Shown here: in pieces, positions 1-15,823 of the stretch
How positions within the stretch are numbered: the first letter of the stretch is position 1
How the letters are laid out: every line of letters starts with the position of its first letter
Origin: Escherichia coli
GTDB taxonomy: Bacteria > Pseudomonadota > Gammaproteobacteria > Enterobacterales > Enterobacteriaceae
Length of the DNA stretch: 15,823 nucleotides
Assembly: GCF_003334385.1 (NCBI RefSeq)
Contig: NZ_QOWN01000065.1
Strand: one strand, 5' to 3'
Notes under the pieces: generated by a model
Databases searched by the model: none
What the model saw: the letters and a program-made list of their open reading frames with translations, nothing else
What the model was told of the DNA's origin: nothing
Translations under genes and position numbers: made by a program

Positions 1-142
1 TAGGCCGGATAAGGCGTTCACGCCGCATCCGGCAGTCGTGCGCAGATGCCTGATGCGACGCTAACGCGTCTTATCAGACCTACAAATTCTCACGCCATCC
101 GTAGGCCGGATAAGGCGTTCACGCCGCATCCGGCAGTCGTGC
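1..142. repeat. REP/BIME cluster: a 41-bp unit (taggccggataaggcgttcacgccgcatccggcagtcgtgc) at 1..41 is repeated exactly at 102..142, with an oppositely oriented REP-like palindromic unit (gcctgatgcgacgctaacgcgtcttatcagacctac) at about 49..84
   Basis: Direct exact repeat and GC-rich imperfect palindromes of the GCCGGATG...CATCCGGC type seen in the sequence; REP elements are well known in E. coli intergenic regions. Lies downstream of the mhpE 3' end. Confidence 0.75.
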
Positions 143-182
143 TGGGATGGGCATACAAAATGCACGTTCTCGGCAGTCATCA

Positions 183-1192
183 TTATTTGTTGTTGCGCAG
201 ATCCAGCGCCACGTCAACGATCATATCCTCCTGGCCGCCAACCATCCGGCGTTTGCCCAGCTCAACGAGAATATCCACCGCACTTAAGCCATAACGCGCC
301 GCCGCCGTTTCACAGTGACGCAGGAAGCTCGAGTAAACACCAGCGTATCCCAGCGCCAGCGTTTCGCGATCGACTCGTACCGGTCGATCCTGCAACGGAC
401 GCACCAGGTCGTCGGCGGCATCCATTAACGCATAGAGATCGGTCCCATGCTGCCAGCCCAGTTTATCCGCGGCGGCAATAAACACTTCCAGCGGTGCGTT
501 ACCTGCGCCCGCGCCCATTCCCGCGAGGCTGGCGTCGATTCGGTCGCAGCCCTCTTCCACCGCCGCGATAGAGTTCGCCACGCCAAGACTCAGGTTATGG
601 TGAGCGTGCATGCCAGTTTGCGTTTCTGGTTTCAGCTCTGCTTTCAGGGCGCGGAAACGGTCACGGATATCGCTCATGTTCATCGCACCGCCAGAATCCA
701 CCACATAAATACAGGTCGCACCGTAGCCTTCCATCAGCTTTGCCTGCTTGGCGAGATTCTCCGGCGTGGTCATATGGCTCATCATCAGAAAACCAACGGT
801 GTCCATTCCGAGCTCGCGGGCATACTGAATATGCTGGGCGGAAACATCAGCTTCGGTACAGTGCGTTGCCACACGAACCACCCGCGCGCCAGCCTGCCAG
901 GCATTTTTCAGATCGTGAATAGTGCCGATTCCTGGCAGCAACAACGTCGCGATTTTGGCGTGCTTCACCACATCCGCCGCCGCTTCAATCCATTCAAGGT
1001 CGCTATGTGCGCCGAAACCATAGTTAAAGCTGGAACCTTGCAAACCGTCGCCGTGGGCCACTTCAATCGAATCCACGCGGGCATCGTCCAGTGCTTTGGC
1101 AATCTGGCGAACGTTTTCCAGCGAATACTGATGACGAATGGCGTGCATACCGTCACGCAATGTGACGTCCGAGATATAAAGTTTTTTACCGT

Positions 1193-1196
<4 letters not shown>
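183..1196 (-). CDS. mhpE: 4-hydroxy-2-oxovalerate aldolase (337 aa)
   Basis: 337-aa ORF; product and length match MhpE as recalled; HMG/pyruvate-aldolase-like sequence; start overlaps the mhpF stop by 4 nt (ATGA), consistent with operon coupling. Confidence 0.93.
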
Positions 1197-2958
<1,762 letters not shown>

Positions 2959-3825
2959 TTAAGGGCGTGCGAGGAAATTCAGCACCAGTTGATTGAAAGC
3001 GTCGGCATGTTCCCACTGCGCCCAGTGACCACAGTCGCGGAAGATATGCAGTTCAGAACCGGCAATGCCGGACAGCAGACGCAGACCCGCATCCATCGGC
3101 ACAAAGCGGTCGTTGCGCCCCCAGACAATCAGGGTTTGCGCTTTGATTTCCGCCAGACGTGGGCCAAAATCCGGGAACTGTTTCGGATTAGCTTCCAGGC
3201 TCTTAACGAAGTTTTCCAGGTGATCGCGGCGCGACAGCATATTATTCAGGCGCGCTTCAAACAGGGCGTCGGTCAAATCGCTGGTATCAAAAACGAAGAT
3301 ATCCATCATCAGCTTCAGGTTTTCGATAGTCGGCTGACGATAAAGCTGATTCAGTCGCTTAATACCTTCGGTTGGCATCGGCGTAAACAAACTCATGCCG
3401 CCCGTACCGCCGCCCATCAGCACCAGTTTGCCGACGCGCTCCGGCCATTTAAGGGTGAACGCCACAGAACTATGGCCCCCCATCGAGTTGCCCAGCAGGT
3501 GGATTTTGGCGATATCCAGTTGATCCACCACGCTTTTCAGGATTCGTGCATTAAGATCCGATCGCGAACCACTATTAACGACCGAATCGCTCTTGCCCCA
3601 ACCCGGACAATCCAGCAGGATCACCCGATAGCCCGCCTCTACCAGCGGATCGATATTGCGGCTGAAGTTCGCCCAGCCAGTAGCACCCGGGCCGGAACCA
3701 TGCAGCAGGACAACGGTTTCGTCGCCTTGTCCGCAGTCATTAAAATGGATGCGCAGCGTTTTACCCGCTTCTTCTACATTCAGAAAACGGCTGGTGGCGG
3801 CTTCGGTTTGTGGCTGATAACTCAT
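2959..3825 (-). CDS. mhpC: 2-hydroxy-6-oxonona-2,4-dienedioate hydrolase (alpha/beta hydrolase, 288 aa)
   Basis: The track ORF 2959..3888 is 309 aa; the recalled MhpC is 288 aa starting [14 protein letters not shown], which puts the start at 3825, preceded by an AGGAGA RBS. GNSMGG nucleophile-elbow motif present. Confidence 0.9.
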
Positions 3826-3842
3826 CATCTTCTCCTGCATAT

Positions 3843-4787
3843 TCAGTTCTCTGTTCTGGCGCTTAACGAGCCAAATCCGGCAATCCACTCCGGGATTGGG
3901 CGGTAATAACGCCCTTCGCTACGCCAGTTGCCAAACGCAGAAATAGCGGCAAAAGCGGCGACCCAGGTTTTGATTTAATGTGTCGACTTTCCGGCAATGG
4001 CGGAAAGCTCTTCGTTACTGACGGCATCCAGTTCCTGTATGCGTCCCTGCTCCAGCAAAGTCATGAACTGGTTATCCCAAATCGGGTTGAGCGGATGCAG
4101 CGTTCTCTGATCCTCAACAAACTTCTCAGCGGCGCTAATCACCCGTTGCTGACGCAATTCGCGCTCACTGGCGGGTAAATCTTTCCCGCTCCCCAACAGA
4201 CGGTCGCGCATATGGGCATCGGCTTTCGCCAGTTCGGGCACCGGCGGCTGATGGGAAAGCCCACCGGAACCCAGGAACAGCACGCGTTTATTGAGAGTGC
4301 TGGTGAAACGTCCAATGGCTTCACCCAACATGCGGGTACGCTGGAAACCGGGCAGCGGCGTGGCGACACCGTTGATGAACACAGGCAGAACTGGCACCTT
4401 ATCCAGCCCACCGAGCAGGAACTCCAGCGGCTGGGCGAACCCGTGGTCCACCTGCATACAGTAAGAAACGGCAAGATCGATCCCGCTCTTCATGACGGCA
4501 TGCGCACAGGCCTCCGCCAGCTCCACAGGCACGGGCAGCTCTCCTGCCGCACTGCCGAAATCACCAATTGCCGTCGCTCCAACGCCTAAACAGAACGGTG
4601 GCATCACGTCATAGAAAAAGCCGTTGTAGTGATCTGGCGCAAACAGCACCACCAGTTCAGGGGAGAATGCCGCAATACGCTCGCGGGCGCTGGCAATCAC
4701 GCCATTGACCTCATCGAGCACCTCTTGCGCCGGGTCGACATACCCCACCAGCGGCGAGTGGGAAAGACAGTGAAGATAAGCGTGCAT
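3843..4787 (-). CDS. mhpB: 3-carboxyethylcatechol 2,3-dioxygenase (extradiol dioxygenase), reading frame interrupted by an in-frame TAA at 3975..3977. The uninterrupted ORF is 3975..4787 (270 aa); the same frame continues for 43 more codons ([43 protein letters not shown]) to the expected stop at 3843..3845
   Basis: The 270-aa ORF matches the MhpB N-terminal 270 residues as recalled (full length 314 aa). Directly after the TAA the frame encodes the recalled MhpB C-terminus. Consistent with a single-nucleotide nonsense change (plus-strand position 3977 A; expected C, giving GAA Glu). Confidence 0.85.
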
Positions 4788-4788
4788 A

Positions 4789-6453
4789 TCAGGCTACCTT
4801 TTCGACAGAAACGTCGGCATCAGGGCGGGTCAGCGTCATCACCGACGCCAGTTTATTCAGGGTCTTGCCCAGGGTTTGCGGAATGGCGGTGGCGGCAACA
4901 AAGCGATCCGGGCGCATCACCACCAGCGAAGCATTGTGTTGCGCGAACCAGCTACGCAGGCGACCTTGCGTATCGCCCACGCGTAGTACGCCGTCGTGGT
5001 TATCCTGTGCGGTATGAATTTGCACTTCCGGCACCACCTGAATGAAGCGTGTGCCCAACGCGCGCCACTGCTGGATTTGCTCGTCGCTCATCCCCCACAG
5101 TGGATTGCATCCCCAGCCAATTACCGCGAAGTTCGCGCCGATCGCGTTATCGAGCAGCGTCACGTCGCCGTTTTCCAGCGTGACTTTCGGCTGAATAAAC
5201 ATCTTGCCGACCGGAGAGTGCTTCGCTTCGCCCTCACGCATCAGCGCACCGCCGTAATATTGCGGCATCGGCTTGAAGCGCATTTCGAGGAAGTAGCGTT
5301 TTACTGGCGGCAGATAATTCAACAGCCAGGAAACGCCGTCACGTAACGTACCCTGCCAGCGTTTCGGCGGAGCCAGCACGTTGCCCGCCGTCACGGACAG
5401 GTCAATCATCGCTTTGGCGTGATCGCGACGTTCTTGTTGATAGGTATCGAGCAGCGCATCGCGGGCTTTCCCCTGGATAACCAACGCCAGTTTCCATGCG
5501 AGGTTAAAGGCGTCGCGCATACCACTGTTATAGCCCTGCCCCTGCCATACCGGCATGATGTGCGCGGCATCGCCCGCCAGCAGTACGCGATCAATACGGA
5601 AACGTTGCGCCAGTCGCGCGTTGTGGGTGTAGACACGCTGGCGAATCAATTCAACATTGTCCGGATTAGGCAGCACTTTGCTTAACAGCTTGCGCATATT
5701 TTGCGGCTCACGCAACTGCTCTTCGGTTTCTCCCGGCATCACCATAAATTCAAAGCGACGTACCGCATGAGGCAGCGCGGCAGAAACATACGGGCGCACC
5801 GGATCGCAACACAAATAGATATGCGGCGTACTTAACGGATCGTTGGCGATATCTACCACAATCCACTGATTTGGCGCAGTTTTACCTTCAAACGGCACAT
5901 TCAGAGTGCGACGGACAAAACTTGCTCCACCGTCACAGGCTACCAGCCACTGGGCTTTGACTATTTCCCGCTGCCCTTCTGCCGTTTTCAGGTGCAAGGT
6001 CACTTCGTCATCTTGCTGACTGAAGGCCTCCAGCTCGCGGGAAAACAAGCAGCGCACATTCGGAAAACGCGACACCCCTTCCAGCATCACCGCATCGACC
6101 TGCGGCTGAATAAAGGCGTTACGGCGCGGCCAGCCAAATTCATCGGTCATTGGCTGAATATCAGCAAAACAGCGGCCTTTCGGGGTGAGAAAACGCATCG
6201 CGTGCCACGGCGTAGTGTGCGGCAGAACATCATCGACCAGGCCGACCGACTGCATGGTGCGCAGCGCCTCGTCATCAATACCAATCGCACGCGGGTAGTC
6301 GATCAACTTATCGAGTTTCTCCACCACCAGCACGTCAATGCCCATCTGGCCGAGATAGTTCGCCATCATCAGCCCAACCGGGCCGGCACCAGCGATCGCC
6401 ACCTGAACGCTATGGTTAACAGCAGGCTGGATGTCAGGGTGTTGTATTGCCAT
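4789..6453 (-). CDS. mhpA: 3-(3-hydroxyphenyl)propionate hydroxylase, FAD-dependent monooxygenase (554 aa)
   Basis: 554-aa ORF with N-terminal FAD-binding GxGxxG motif ([16 protein letters not shown]); length matches MhpA; stop lies 1 nt from the mhpB start. Confidence 0.93.
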
Positions 6454-6594
6454 TTCAGTACCTCACGACTCGGACAAAATGTCGTTGCGCGCACAGTACA
6501 GCGCAACTTATTTTGTTAAAAACATGTAAATGATTTTTTATTGTGCGCTCAGTATAGGAAGGGTGTTTTCGGCTACAATCAAAACATGCCCGAA

Positions 6595-6611
6595 TGTGCA
6601 CCAGGTGCACC
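6595..6611. promoter_or_regulatory. 17-bp imperfect palindrome tgtgcaccaggtgcacc (reverse complement ggtgcacctggtgcaca) in the divergent mhpR–mhpA intergenic region; candidate MhpR operator of the mhp catabolic promoter
   Basis: Palindrome seen in the sequence; assignment to MhpR is from recollection of the published Pa operator and is not verified here. Confidence 0.5.
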
Positions 6612-6643
6612 ACGTTGTTTTAACTATAGAAATGTCAATTAAT

Positions 6644-7477
6644 ATGCAGAACAATGAGCAGACGGAATACAAAACCGTGCGCGGCTTAACCCGCGGTCTA
6701 ATGTTATTAAATATGTTAAATAAACTTGATGGCGGTGCCAGCGTCGGGCTGCTGGCGGAACTCAGCGGCCTGCATCGCACCACTGTGCGGCGACTGCTGG
6801 AGACGCTGCAGGAAGAGGGATATGTCCGCCGTAGCCCCTCCGATGATAGTTTTCGACTGACCATCAAAGTGCGGCAATTAAGCGAAGGATTTCGTGACGA
6901 ACAGTGGATTTCTGCACTGGCGGCCCCACTGCTGGGCGATCTGTTGCGCGAAGTGGTATGGCCGACAGATGTGTCCACGCTGGATGTTGATGCAATGGTG
7001 GTACGCGAAACCACTCACCGTTTCAGCCGCTTATCCTTTCACCGGGCAATGGTCGGGCGACGTTTGCCGCTTCTGAAAACCGCCTCGGGCCTGACCTGGC
7101 TGGCCTTTTGCCCGTAACAAGACCGCAAGGAATTAATCGAAATGTTAGCCTCCCGCCCCGGTGATGACTATCAACTGGCACGGGAACCGTTAAAGCTGGA
7201 AGCCATTCTGGCGCGCGCGCGCAAAGAGGGTTACGGACAGAACTACCGCGGCTGGGATCAGGAGGAGAAGATCGCCTCTATCGCCGTACCGCTGCGCAGT
7301 GAACAACGGGTGATTGGCTGTCTGAATCTGGTGTATATGGCGAGCGCAATGACCATTGAACAGGCAGCGGAAAAGCATCTTCCGGCGCTACAACGGGTAG
7401 CAAAACAGATCGAAGAAGGGGTTGAATCGCAGGCTATTCTGGTGGCCGGAAGGCGAAGCGGCATGCATTTACGTTGA
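6644..7477 (+). CDS. mhpR: IclR-family transcriptional activator of the mhp operon (expected 277 aa), interrupted by an in-frame TAA at 7115..7117. Present as an N-terminal ORF 6644..7117 (157 aa from MQNNEQ; wHTH domain) and a same-frame C-terminal ORF 7142..7477 (111 aa)
   Basis: Track ORFs 6530..7117 and 7142..7477 are in the same frame, separated only by TAA plus 8 sense codons (QDRKELIE). Read-through from ATG 6644 gives exactly 277 codons, the recalled MhpR length. IclR-type HTH (LSGLHRTTVRRLLETL) present in the N-terminal part. Confidence 0.85.
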
Positions 7478-7489
7478 CACCATCGAATG

Positions 7490-7518
7490 GCGCAAAACCT
7501 TTCGCGGTATGGCATGAT
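7490..7518 (+). promoter_or_regulatory. lacI constitutive promoter: -35 GCGCAA (7490..7495) and -10 CATGAT (7513..7518); wild-type, not lacIq
   Basis: Sequence gacaccatcgaatggcgcaaaacctttcgcggtatggcatgatagcgcccgg matches the canonical wild-type lacI promoter as recalled; the lacIq C-to-T at the -35 is absent. Confidence 0.85.
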
Positions 7519-7553
7519 AGCGCCCGGAAGAGAGTCAATTCAGGGTGGTGAAT

Positions 7554-8636
7554 GTGAAACCAGTAACGTTATACGATGTCGCAGAGTATGCCGGTGTCTC
7601 TTATCAGACCGTTTCCCGCGTGGTGAACCAGGCCAGCCACGTTTCTGCGAAAACGCGGGAAAAAGTGGAAGCGGCGATGGCGGAGCTGAATTACATTCCC
7701 AACCGCGTGGCACAACAACTGGCGGGCAAACAGTCGTTGCTGATTGGCGTTGCCACCTCCAGTCTGGCCCTGCACGCGCCGGCGCAAATTGTCGCGGCGA
7801 TTAAATCTCGCGCCGATCAACTGGGTGCCAGCGTGGTGGTGTCGATGGTAGAACGAAGCGGCGTCGAAGCCTGTAAAGCGGCGGTGCACAATCTTCTCGC
7901 GCAACGCGTCAGTGGGCTGATCATTAACTATCCGCTGGATGACCAGGATGCCATTGCTGTGGAAGCTGCCTGCACTAATGTTCCGGCGTTATTTCTTGAT
8001 GTCTCTGACCAGACACCCATCAACAGTATTATTTTCTCCCATGAAGACGGTACGCGACTGGGCGTGGAGCATCTGGTCGCATTGGGTCACCAGCAAATCG
8101 CGCTGTTAGCGGGCCCATTAAGTTCTGTCTCGGCGCGTCTGCGTCTGGCTGGCTGGCATAAATATCTCACTCGCAATCAAATTCAGCCGATAGCGGAACG
8201 GGAAGGCGACTGGAGTGCCATGTCCGGTTTTCAACAAACCATGCAAATGCTGAATGAGGGCATCGTTCCCACTGCGATGCTGGTTGCCAACGATCAGATG
8301 GCGCTGGGCGCAATGCGCGCCATTACCGAGTCCGGGCTGCGCGTTGGTGCGGATATCTCGGTAGTGGGATACGACGATACCGAAGACAGCTCATGTTATA
8401 TCCCGCCGTTAACCACCATCAAACAGGATTTTCGCCTGCTGGGGCAAACCAGCGTGGACCGCTTGCTGCAACTCTCTCAGGGCCAGGCGGTGAAGGGCAA
8501 TCAGCTGTTGCCCGTCTCACTGGTGAAAAGAAAAACCACCCTGGCGCCCAATACGCAAACCGCCTCTCCCCGCGCGTTGGCCGATTCATTAATGCAGCTG
8601 GCACGACAGGTTTCCCGACTGGAAAGCGGGCAGTGA
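7554..8636 (+). CDS. lacI: lactose operon repressor LacI (360 aa), GTG start
   Basis: Begins GTG AAA CCA GTA (MKPVTLYDVAEYAGVSYQTVSRVVNQ); the track ORF starts two codons further upstream on an alternative start. Protein matches LacI throughout as recalled, except codon 77 (GCG Ala here, TCG Ser recalled). Ends ...RLESGQ followed by TGA. Confidence 0.96.
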   Translation: MKPVTLYDVAEYAGVSYQTVSRVVNQASHVSAKTREKVEAAMAELNYIPNRVAQQLAGKQSLLIGVATSSLALHAPAQIVAAIKSRADQLGASVVVSMVERSGVEACKAAVHNLLAQRVSGLIINYPLDDQDAIAVEAACTNVPALFLDVSDQTPINSIIFSHEDGTRLGVEHLVALGHQQIALLAGPLSSVSARLRLAGWHKYLTRNQIQPIAEREGDWSAMSGFQQTMQMLNEGIVPTAMLVANDQMALGAMRAITESGLRVGADISVVGYDDTEDSSCYIPPLTTIKQDFRLLGQTSVDRLLQLSQGQAVKGNQLLPVSLVKRKTTLAPNTQTASPRALADSLMQLARQVSRLESGQ

Positions 8637-8649
8637 GCGCAACGCAATT
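8629..8649 (+). promoter_or_regulatory. lac auxiliary operator O3 (ggcagtgagcgcaacgcaatt), overlapping the lacI 3' end
   Basis: Exact match to the canonical O3 sequence as recalled. Confidence 0.9.
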
Positions 8650-8671
8650 AATGTGAGTTAGCTCACTCATT
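8650..8671 (+). promoter_or_regulatory. CRP (CAP) binding site of the lac promoter (aatgtgagttagctcactcatt)
   Basis: Canonical TGTGA-N6-TCACT lac CAP site, exact as recalled. Confidence 0.92.
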
Positions 8672-8684
8672 AGGCACCCCAGGC

Positions 8685-8714
8685 TTTACACTTTATGCTT
8701 CCGGCTCGTATGTT
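8685..8714 (+). promoter_or_regulatory. lac promoter P1: -35 TTTACA (8685..8690) and -10 TATGTT (8709..8714); wild-type, not lacUV5
   Basis: Hexamers and spacing match wild-type lacP; the -10 is TATGTT rather than the UV5 TATAAT. Confidence 0.92.
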
Positions 8715-8720
8715 GTGTAA

Positions 8721-11833
<3,113 letters not shown>

Positions 11834-11839
11834 TAATAA

Positions 11840-13138
<1,299 letters not shown>

Positions 13139-13147
13139 GCAATCAAT

Positions 13148-13177
13148 GTCGGATGCGGCGCGAGCGCCTTATCCGAC
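13148..13177 (+). repeat. REP-like palindrome gtcggatgcggcgcgagcgccttatccgac in the lacY–lacA intergenic region
   Basis: Near-perfect inverted repeat seen in the sequence, just upstream of the lacA RBS (ggag, 13192..13195). Confidence 0.6.
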
Positions 13178-13203
13178 CAACATATCATAACGGAGTGATC
13201 GCA

Positions 13204-13815
13204 TTGAACATGCCAATGACCGAAAGAATAAGAGCAGGCAAGCTATTTACCGATATGTGCGAAGGCTTACCGGAAAAAAGACTTCGTGGGAAAACGTTAA
13301 TGTATGAGTTTAATCACTCGCATCCATCAGAAGTTGAAAAAAGAGAAAGCCTGATTAAAGAAATGTTTGCCACGGTAGGGGAAAACGCCTGGGTAGAACC
13401 GCCTGTCTATTTCTCTTACGGTTCCAACATCCATATAGGCCGCAATTTTTATGCAAATTTCAATTTAACCATTGTCGATGACTACACGGTAACAATCGGT
13501 GATAACGTACTGATTGCACCCAACGTTACTCTTTCCGTTACGGGACACCCTGTACACCATGAATTGAGAAAAAACGGCGAGATGTACTCTTTTCCGATAA
13601 CGATTGGCAATAACGTCTGGATCGGAAGTCATGTGGTTATTAATCCAGGCGTCACCATCGGGGATAATTCTGTTATTGGCGCGGGTAGTATCGTCACAAA
13701 AGACATTCCACCAAACGTCGTGGCGGCTGGCGTTCCTTGTCGGGTTATTCGCGAAATAAACGACCGGGATAAGCACTATTATTTCAAAGATTATAAAGTT
13801 GAATCGTCAGTTTAA
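13204..13815 (+). CDS. lacA: galactoside O-acetyltransferase LacA (203 aa), TTG start
   Basis: The track ORF 13153..13815 (220 aa) contains ...LNMPMTERIRAGK; the recalled LacA is 203 aa starting MNMPMTERIR on a TTG codon (13204). Hexapeptide-repeat acyltransferase motifs present. Confidence 0.92.
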   Translation: MNMPMTERIRAGKLFTDMCEGLPEKRLRGKTLMYEFNHSHPSEVEKRESLIKEMFATVGENAWVEPPVYFSYGSNIHIGRNFYANFNLTIVDDYTVTIGDNVLIAPNVTLSVTGHPVHHELRKNGEMYSFPITIGNNVWIGSHVVINPGVTIGDNSVIGAGSIVTKDIPPNVVAAGVPCRVIREINDRDKHYYFKDYKVESSV

Positions 13816-13827
13816 ATTATAAAAATT

Positions 13828-13856
13828 GCCTGATACGCTGCGCTTATCAGGCCTAC
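13828..13856 (+). terminator. REP-type palindrome gcctgatacgctgcgcttatcaggcctac downstream of lacA, a likely 3' hairpin and transcript stabiliser for the lac operon, facing the convergent cynX
   Basis: Inverted repeat (gcctgata / tatcaggc) 12 nt after the lacA stop; no U-tract, so this is a REP hairpin rather than a classical intrinsic terminator. Confidence 0.5.
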
Positions 13857-13917
13857 AAGTTCAGCGATCTACATTAGCCGCATCCGGCATGAACAAAGCG
13901 CAGGAACAAGCGTCGCA

Positions 13918-15072
13918 TCATGCCTCTTTGACCCACAGCTGCGGAAAACGTACTGGTGCAAAACGCAGGGTTATGATCATCAGCCCAACGACGCACAGCG
14001 CATGAAATGCCCAGTCCATCAGGTAATTGCCGCTGATACTACGCAGCACGCCAGAAAACCACGGGGCAAGCCCGGCGATGATAAAACCGATTCCCTGCAT
14101 AAACGCCACCAGCTTGCCAGCAATAGCCGGTTGCACAGAGTGATCGAGCGCCAGCAGCAAACAGAGCGGAAACGCGCCGCCCAGACCTAACCCACACACC
14201 ATCGCCCACAATACCGGCAATTGCATCGGCAGCCAGATAAAGCCGCAGAACCCCACCAGTTGTAACACCAGCGCCAGCATTAACAGTTTGCGCCGATCCT
14301 GATGGCGAGCCATAGCAGGCATCAGCAAAGCTCCTGCGGCTTGCCCAAGCGTCATCAATGCCAGTAAGGAACCGCTGTACTGCGCGCTGGCACCAATCTC
14401 AATATAGAAAGCGGGTAACCAGGCAATCAGGCTGGCGTAACCGCCGTTAATCAGACCGAAGTAAACACCCAGCGTCCACGCGCGGGGAGTGAATACCACG
14501 CGAACCGGAGTGGTTGTTGTCTTGTGGGAAGAGGCGACCTCGCGGGCGCTTTGCCACCACCAGGCAAAGAGCGCAACAACGGCAGGCAGCGCCCACCAGG
14601 CGAGTGTTTGATACCAGGTTTCGCTATGTTGAACTAACCAGGGCGTTATGGCGGCACCAAGCCCACCGCCGCCCATCAGAGCCGCGGACCACAGCCCCAT
14701 CACCAGTGGCGTGCGCTGCTGAAACCGCCGTTTAATCACCGAAGGCATCACCGCCTGAATGATGCCGATCCCCACCCCACCAAGCAGTGCGCTGCTAAGC
14801 AGCAGCGCACTTTGCGGGTAAAGCTCACGCATCAATGCACCGACGGCAATCAGCAACAGACTGATGGCGACACTGCGACGTTCGCTGACATGCTGATGAA
14901 GCCAGCTTCCGGCCAGCGCCAGCCCGCCCATGGTAACCACCGGCAGAGCGGTCAACAGGGCAGCCACGCTAAAGCTCATTCCGCTCGCCTGGCGCAATTG
15001 CGGTAGCAGTGGCCCGACGGAGGTGAGCAGTGGTCGCATATTAAGACCAATCAGCACCAGTACCAGCAGCAT
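13918..15072 (-). CDS. cynX: cyanate transporter CynX (MFS family, 384 aa)
   Basis: The track ORF 13918..15099 is 393 aa; the recalled CynX is 384 aa starting MLLVLVLIGLNMRPLL, so the start is placed at Met10 (15072). Highly hydrophobic, multi-TM. Confidence 0.88.
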   Translation of the reverse strand: MLLVLVLIGLNMRPLLTSVGPLLPQLRQASGMSFSVAALLTALPVVTMGGLALAGSWLHQHVSERRSVAISLLLIAVGALMRELYPQSALLLSSALLGGVGIGIIQAVMPSVIKRRFQQRTPLVMGLWSAALMGGGGLGAAITPWLVQHSETWYQTLAWWALPAVVALFAWWWQSAREVASSHKTTTTPVRVVFTPRAWTLGVYFGLINGGYASLIAWLPAFYIEIGASAQYSGSLLALMTLGQAAGALLMPAMARHQDRRKLLMLALVLQLVGFCGFIWLPMQLPVLWAMVCGLGLGGAFPLCLLLALDHSVQPAIAGKLVAFMQGIGFIIAGLAPWFSGVLRSISGNYLMDWAFHALCVVGLMIITLRFAPVRFPQLWVKEA

Positions 15073-15104
15073 CGTGAACGTCTTTTGATGGTTGCGCATG
15101 GCTG

Positions 15105-15593
<489 letters not shown>

Positions 15594-15605
15594 TTAAAAA
15601 TAAGG

Positions 15606-15823
15606 TTACGCTGCGGTCGGTTGGCGTAGCGGTATGGCACAAACGCGAGGATTAGCGGCCAGTGGCACAAACTGGCGGGTTGCGCCGTCAAAAGCTGCGA
15701 TGCTGCCGCTTTCAATGTCGTAGACCCAGCCGTGCAGGGCGATCCGCCCATAAGCGCTAACTTAAGGGTTGTGGTATTACGCCTGATATGATTTAACGTG
15801 CCGATGAATTACTCTCACGATAA
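15606..15823 (-). CDS. cynT: carbonic anhydrase CynT, 3' portion only (gene runs off the window). The last 48 codons (15609..15752) encode [47 protein letters not shown]; upstream of about 15753 the frame is not open
   Basis: Hand translation of the minus strand gives the CynT C-terminus as recalled, with a TAA stop at 15606..15608. An in-frame TAA lies at 15762..15764 and all three minus-strand frames contain stops in 15753..15823. Confidence 0.7.

Follow-up and report, generated by a model that had tools for sequence, protein, structure and literature searches.

Gene order and the interrupted mhpR frame

The window, meaning the whole 15,823-base stretch of DNA that was analysed, covers the mhp-lac-cyn region of Escherichia coli in reversed orientation relative to MG1655. 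Its minus strand encodes mhpE, mhpF, mhpD, mhpC, mhpB, and mhpA, and its plus strand carries mhpR, lacI, lacZ, lacY, and lacA; lacA is followed by cynX, cynS, and a truncated cynT, all on the minus strand. A base-by-base comparison of positions 1..15749 with MG1655 shows zero indels and eight substitutions, and the ancestral set of coding sequences translates cleanly.

From position 15750 on, cynT is broken off and the sequence is that of the end of an IS4-family element (15750..15823). The junction at cynT is identical in the complete genome of the human isolate SCU-104, where the element is annotated as an IS421-family transposase. Beyond the insertion in its cynT, SCU-104 carries hok/gef and cysH, which implies an IS-associated rearrangement. 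At the opposite end, window positions 1..142 belong to the mhpE-mhpT intergenic region, of which K-12 holds three further copies at offsets of ~100 bases and with 92-98% identity. The window looks like a whole short-read contig with repeats bounding both ends; a search for tandem repeats within it found none. The features discussed below are the following.

6644..7477, plus strand: mhpR pseudogene (IclR-family activator), 277 codons and the terminal stop, broken at codon 158, colinear with K-12 b0346
7115..7117, plus strand: premature ochre stop TAA, ancestral codon GAA (Glu158), G>T at 7115
6644..7117, plus strand: N-terminal fragment ORF, 157 aa, with the winged HTH and the first ~41% of the effector domain
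7142..7477, plus strand: C-terminal same-frame ORF from the ORF list, 111 aa, starting at Met167
6454..6643, no strand: mhpA-mhpR divergent promoter region, same as in K-12, with no substitution between 5715 and 7115
3843..4787, minus strand: mhpB pseudogene (extradiol dioxygenase gene), GAA>TAA at codon 271 of 314, stop at 3975..3977
183..6453, minus strand: mhpABCDFE catabolic operon, activated by MhpR, with mhpA, mhpC, mhpD, mhpF, and mhpE intact

Translation of 6644..7477 yields 278 codons; besides the normal terminal stop there is one internal stop, located after ...LTWLAFCP. The K-12 gene (b0346, NP_414880.2) is one 834-nt CDS encoding 277 aa that maps exactly onto this interval, and the only mismatch in the gene is G>T at 7115. 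Where the window has T, MG1655, SCU-104, and VG48B2 all have G, so that codon 158 has gone from GAA (Glu) to TAA; Glu158 is also kept in two divergent haplotypes (L021 and L029). Both the mutation and the truncation are thus read directly from the DNA. The two genes share locus and synteny, with mhpR divergent from mhpA and upstream of lacI in the window and in the annotation of K-12, SCU-104, and VG48B2. They differ at codon 158 alone, where the K-12 gene has GAA and the window has TAA, which limits a single chain to residues 1-157. The length of this chain depends on the start codon chosen. The ORF list begins the first mhpR piece at 6530 (195 aa), since it takes the first ATG after a stop, and the K-12 start at 6644 gives 157 aa.

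These results agree with a preliminary description of the locus, which had identified the gene as mhpR and had placed ORFs 6644..7117 and 7142..7477 in the same frame (both starts leave a remainder of 2 on division by 3). Colinearity with b0346 and the IclR domains that Pfam finds on the repaired protein support the identification. The length of 277 codons on read-through is that of the K-12 protein, and the 157-aa fragment ending in ...LTWLAFCP follows from translation and the K-12 start. The reference codon had been guessed as CAA or GAA, and the alignment to K-12 settles it as GAA. The same description had considered that the reference protein might itself be only about 157 aa long, or that the two ORFs might be separate genes; the reference is a single 277-aa gene.

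As it stands, the mhpR of the window does not have the uninterrupted 277-codon frame of a functional MhpR orthologue, being interrupted by TAA at codon 158. A premature stop at a position where close relatives have a sense codon marks a unitary pseudogene, and this is what the window contains. Programmed read-through and recoding call for a stop that is conserved across lineages, and the stop at codon 158 is seen in one lineage only.

The truncated activator and the mhp pathway

On the repaired, read-through MhpR, Pfam identifies HTH_IclR (PF09339) at residues 15-64 (E = 4.8e-14) and IclR_C (PF01614) at residues 89-256 (E = 4.5e-12), and IclR regulators in the PDB align with residues 12-251 as one unit. 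The 157-aa product keeps HTH_IclR and ~41% of the effector domain, and residues 158-277, comprising ~59% of IclR_C, are lost. This matches the earlier expectation that the HTH would be kept and most of the effector domain would go. In IclR proteins the C-terminal effector-binding domain also mediates oligomerisation. From what is known of the family, we infer that the truncation takes away an essential part of MhpR.

Published work summed up in PMC11237407 presents MhpR as an inducer-dependent regulator, and 3HPP, PP, and DHPP stimulate its binding to the mhpABCDFE operator. In LB, deletion of mhpR from MG1655 caused no phenotype, no change in the transcriptome, and no effect on survival (PMC11237407), and the gene therefore appears dispensable in many conditions. 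Judging by the domain content of the product and the published biology of MhpR, loss of activator function and a non-inducible mhp operon are expected.

The preliminary description had also pointed to a second nonsense codon in the pathway, and the comparison with K-12 confirms it. In mhpB, GAA>TAA at 3977..3975 on the minus strand introduces a stop at codon 271 of 314 (E271*), and in Logan contigs the gene call is 270 aa long. With mhpR E158* and mhpB E271* combined, the mhp pathway would be expected to be blocked twice. The hca route feeds DHPP into the mhp pathway and would be blocked as well. The lineage should consequently fail to induce or complete the meta-cleavage route for 3-hydroxyphenylpropionate and phenylpropionate, a gut-relevant carbon source. 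Given that the pathway is expected to be dead, mhpR and mhpB should both carry pseudogene annotation.

The same mhpB E271* is found on a different haplotype (L017, Logan SRR29106068), which is present in four samples and has 98.7% identity to the window, with 164 differences over 13 kb. The differences nearest to the mhpB stop lie ~40 bases off, at 3936 and 3938, and this stop would most simply be an independent mutation at the same codon. In L017 mhpR is intact, from which it follows that loss of mhpB alone is viable. Separately, lacY is called as 407 aa in L017 (1650..2873) and the interval from lacY to cynX has no lacA call, which suggests further decay or deletion at the 3' end of its lac operon.

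Occurrence of mhpR and mhpB null alleles in public data

Of 5,426 complete E. coli genomes, none contains the exact 71-base stretch around the mhpR stop; 4,870 hold the stretch, at best with one mismatch. The allele thus looks young and lineage-specific. The exact 71-mer of mhpB E271* is likewise absent from all 5,426 genomes. Among other assemblies, window positions 1..15743 are 100% identical to a contig of NCBI GCA_012738655.1 and positions 37..15743 to a contig of NCBI GCA_012504395.1, and positions 114..13176 are identical to a Logan contig from ERR1948963 that is present in six samples or runs. Neither mhpR nor mhpB has a protein in the annotation of the two NCBI assemblies, which is what one expects when genes are flagged as pseudogenes. 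The stop in mhpR is a genuine feature of a sequenced natural lineage, not an isolated error or an artificial change. A literature search by run and assembly accessions found no paper.

The predicted products were also looked up as exact sequences among ~15 billion public proteins. The 195-aa truncated MhpR (from the upstream ATG preferred by gene callers), the 111-aa C-terminal ORF, the 270-aa MhpB, and LacI S77A were all found. The 195-aa protein appeared widespread, on 18 contigs, and this was rejected. Among the carriers listed, it arises from the true stop only on the contig of this lineage, and the others are wild-type contigs that end at 7114-7116. Most matches to the 270-aa MhpB are likewise wild-type contigs ending at the codon in question. 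The apparent spread of both products is therefore an ascertainment effect of exact-sequence look-up. The exact 360-aa LacI S77A protein occurs on only five NCBI contigs, and the two that were examined both belong to this lineage.

Other natural null alleles of mhpR do exist. W152* (TGG>TGA) is found on two haplotypes with 15 further differences between them (ERZ27279884 and ERZ27307753), W106* in SRR35531966 and GCA_054216005.1, and a 1-bp deletion at nt 420 in GCA_002229535.1. In the contigs that carry these alleles (L029, L030, L021, L022, and L034), the neighbouring genes are intact each time. The exact 71-mer of W152* is again found in 0 of the 5,426 complete genomes. Like E158*, all of them are independent truncations of mhpR within the effector domain; they differ in that they are TGG>TGA changes or a frameshift at other positions, rather than GAA>TAA, and are not seen together with an mhpB stop. 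Recurring but rare nulls of this kind are typical of a dispensable catabolic pathway that null mutations strike again and again. That nulls of mhpR and mhpB arise repeatedly without appreciable frequency in the 5,426 genomes is consistent with long-term purifying selection.

Laboratory disruptions provide a further comparison. In Keio mhpR::kan, MG1655 delta-mhpR, and BW25113 mhpC::IS30, mhp regulation or function is also lost and growth in rich medium is normal (PMC11237407). These disruptions are engineered or IS-mediated, whereas the window has a nonsense point mutation that arose spontaneously in a wild-type background.

Private substitutions and the origin of the stop

Comparison with more relatives separates the eight differences from MG1655 into two natural polymorphisms and six substitutions private to the lineage, which are listed here.

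3977, C>A (plus strand): mhpB E271*
5715, G>A: mhpA L247, synonymous
7115, G>T: mhpR E158*
7782, T>G: lacI codon 77 TCG>GCG, LacI S77A
8719, G>A: falls 2 bases before the first A of AATTGTGAGCG, a lac operator sequence
8821, C>A: lacZ Gly21, synonymous

By type, three of these are G:C>T:A, two G:C>A:T, and one A:T>C:G. All six fall within 4.85 kb (3977..8821) of the 15.7-kb stretch (simulated p ~0.012, post hoc), and outside this patch the stretch has no private differences from its closest relatives. Nonsense changes make up two of the five private coding substitutions against an expectation of 3.3% (p ~0.010, post hoc). The two natural polymorphisms lie close to the private change at 8719. 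Window positions 8719..8732, in the lac promoter/operator O1, read TATGTTGTGTAAAATTGTGAGCGAATAACAATT, and K-12 has ...GTGTGGAATTGTGAGCGGATAACAATT. Both 8720 G>A and 8732 G>A are common to isolates such as USMARC-51408 and N10, and 8732 is base 12 of the 21-bp lac operator O1 AATTGTGAGCGGATAACAATT.

Import of the patch by recombination from a sequenced donor was rejected, as no complete genome has fewer than six mismatches in 3900..8900. None of the six private changes lies in a closely matching tract of any complete genome, which leaves no donor for a recombination patch in that collection. The clustering and the excess of nonsense changes suggest relaxed or positive selection for loss of function, or a local event. 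The cluster itself could be due to chance, to mutagenesis acting locally, or to a recombination donor outside the sampled genomes, and the pattern of private substitutions establishes nothing unusual.

Our preferred reading, with a probability of about 0.87, is that mhpR E158* is a recent lineage-specific loss-of-function mutation in a natural E. coli lineage whose mhp-lac haplotype resembles that of K-12. One G>T transversion turned Glu158 (GAA) into an ochre stop, and translation ends after residue 157. The 157-aa product would be expected to misfold or not respond to 3HPP, PP, or DHPP, failing to activate the mhpABCDFE promoter. After the first hit, a second stop would be neutral; if mhpB was lost first, selection may even have favoured a silent operon. 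The preliminary description had regarded two nonsense codons in one pathway as unexpected under purifying selection. The stops themselves are real, but they do not speak against normal evolution, since relaxed selection after a first inactivating hit gives this outcome. We regard the case as ordinary pseudogenisation of a dispensable catabolic pathway, a kind of event that is already known. It is a clean two-hit example of pathway decay that matters little beyond strain annotation. Plain neutral drift does not predict that the private substitutions should be clustered and rich in nonsense changes, and a modest residual interest attaches to this clustering, to the nonsense enrichment, and to the parallel mhpB stop.

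An adaptive shutdown of the pathway is unlikely. It supposes that once MhpB is lost, MhpA and Hca make a dead-end catechol (DHPP), so that a null allele of the activator is selected, or else that loss of the pathway is favoured in the niche of the lineage. Such selection would account for the finding that both nonsense changes among the five private coding ones lie in the mhp pathway (p ~0.01), for the recurrence of mhpB E271* on an unrelated haplotype, and for the recurrence of mhpR nulls. However, every null allele is rare, and the complete absence of the E158*, mhpB E271*, and W152* 71-mers from the 5,426 genomes fits transient, mildly deleterious or neutral alleles better than sweeps. In addition, PMC11237407 cites work in which an mhpR mutant of EHEC reportedly lost out in competition in the mouse gut. 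A search for an intermediate haplotype of this lineage found none. We are similarly doubtful of a more elaborate version, in which the stops represent a selected two-step shutdown (mhpB first, giving a toxic dead-end catechol, and mhpR second) inside a 4.85-kb mutation patch which reaches into LacI (S77A) and the lac promoter as well. If this were true, a local mutagenic or recombination event could have rewired two adjacent regulons at once, and the recurring mhpB E271* would point to a site under selection or a mutational hot spot.

An origin of the mhp-lac region in laboratory mutagenesis or engineering, in place of natural evolution, is highly improbable. Six private substitutions in 4.85 kb, with two nonsense changes, LacI S77A, and a change beside the lac operator motif among them, might be taken as its trace. 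The background is not that of K-12, however: the IS421/IS186-family insertion in cynT is common to the human isolate SCU-104, the lac-operator variants 8720A and 8732A are common to USMARC-51408 and N10, and the spectrum of private mutations is mixed. The suspicion that the DNA came from a K-12 laboratory strain or an artificially mutated K-12, raised by the clustering of the eight differences around lac, was rejected because of the identical public isolate assemblies, the cynT insertion shared with SCU-104, and the natural origin of 8720A and 8732A. The DAB-prefixed NCBI records are presumably third-party assemblies of surveillance reads.

The chance that T at 7115 is a sequencing or assembly artefact, with GAA in the true genome, is very slight. 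None of the 5,426 complete genomes has the substitution, and several other public assemblies in which mhpR is split are plainly full of errors, mhpA, lacI, and lacZ being fragmented too (e.g., L031-L033 and L035). Against this, the same T is present in the two NCBI assemblies and in the Logan contig of six runs, which are 100% identical over 13-15.7 kb, and the neighbouring genes of the window are intact except for mhpB, with zero indels relative to K-12.

It is just as hard to believe that MhpR still works, whether through an ochre suppressor or read-through or through halves made separately by re-initiation at Met167 and reassembled. The ATG at 7142 comes 24 nt past the stop, and 10 nt upstream of it there is a Shine-Dalgarno-like AAGGA (7127..7131), for which the predicted anti-SD duplex energy is -5.4 kcal/mol, compared with -4.3 kcal/mol for lacZ by the same measure. 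The 111-aa C-terminal ORF is called as a separate protein by gene callers and has no Pfam hit on record. As far as sequence can tell, re-initiation giving this fragment is possible but unproven. Both stops derive from GAA, and one Glu-inserting ochre suppressor would, in principle, restore both proteins. In E. coli, termination is nonetheless most efficient at TAA, the stop is limited to one lineage and is not conserved, and the window, the part of the genome within the scope of the search, contains no tRNA genes. Restoration of function by the C-terminal fragment is unlikely, as the fragment has no DNA-binding domain and the break falls inside IclR_C and not between domains.
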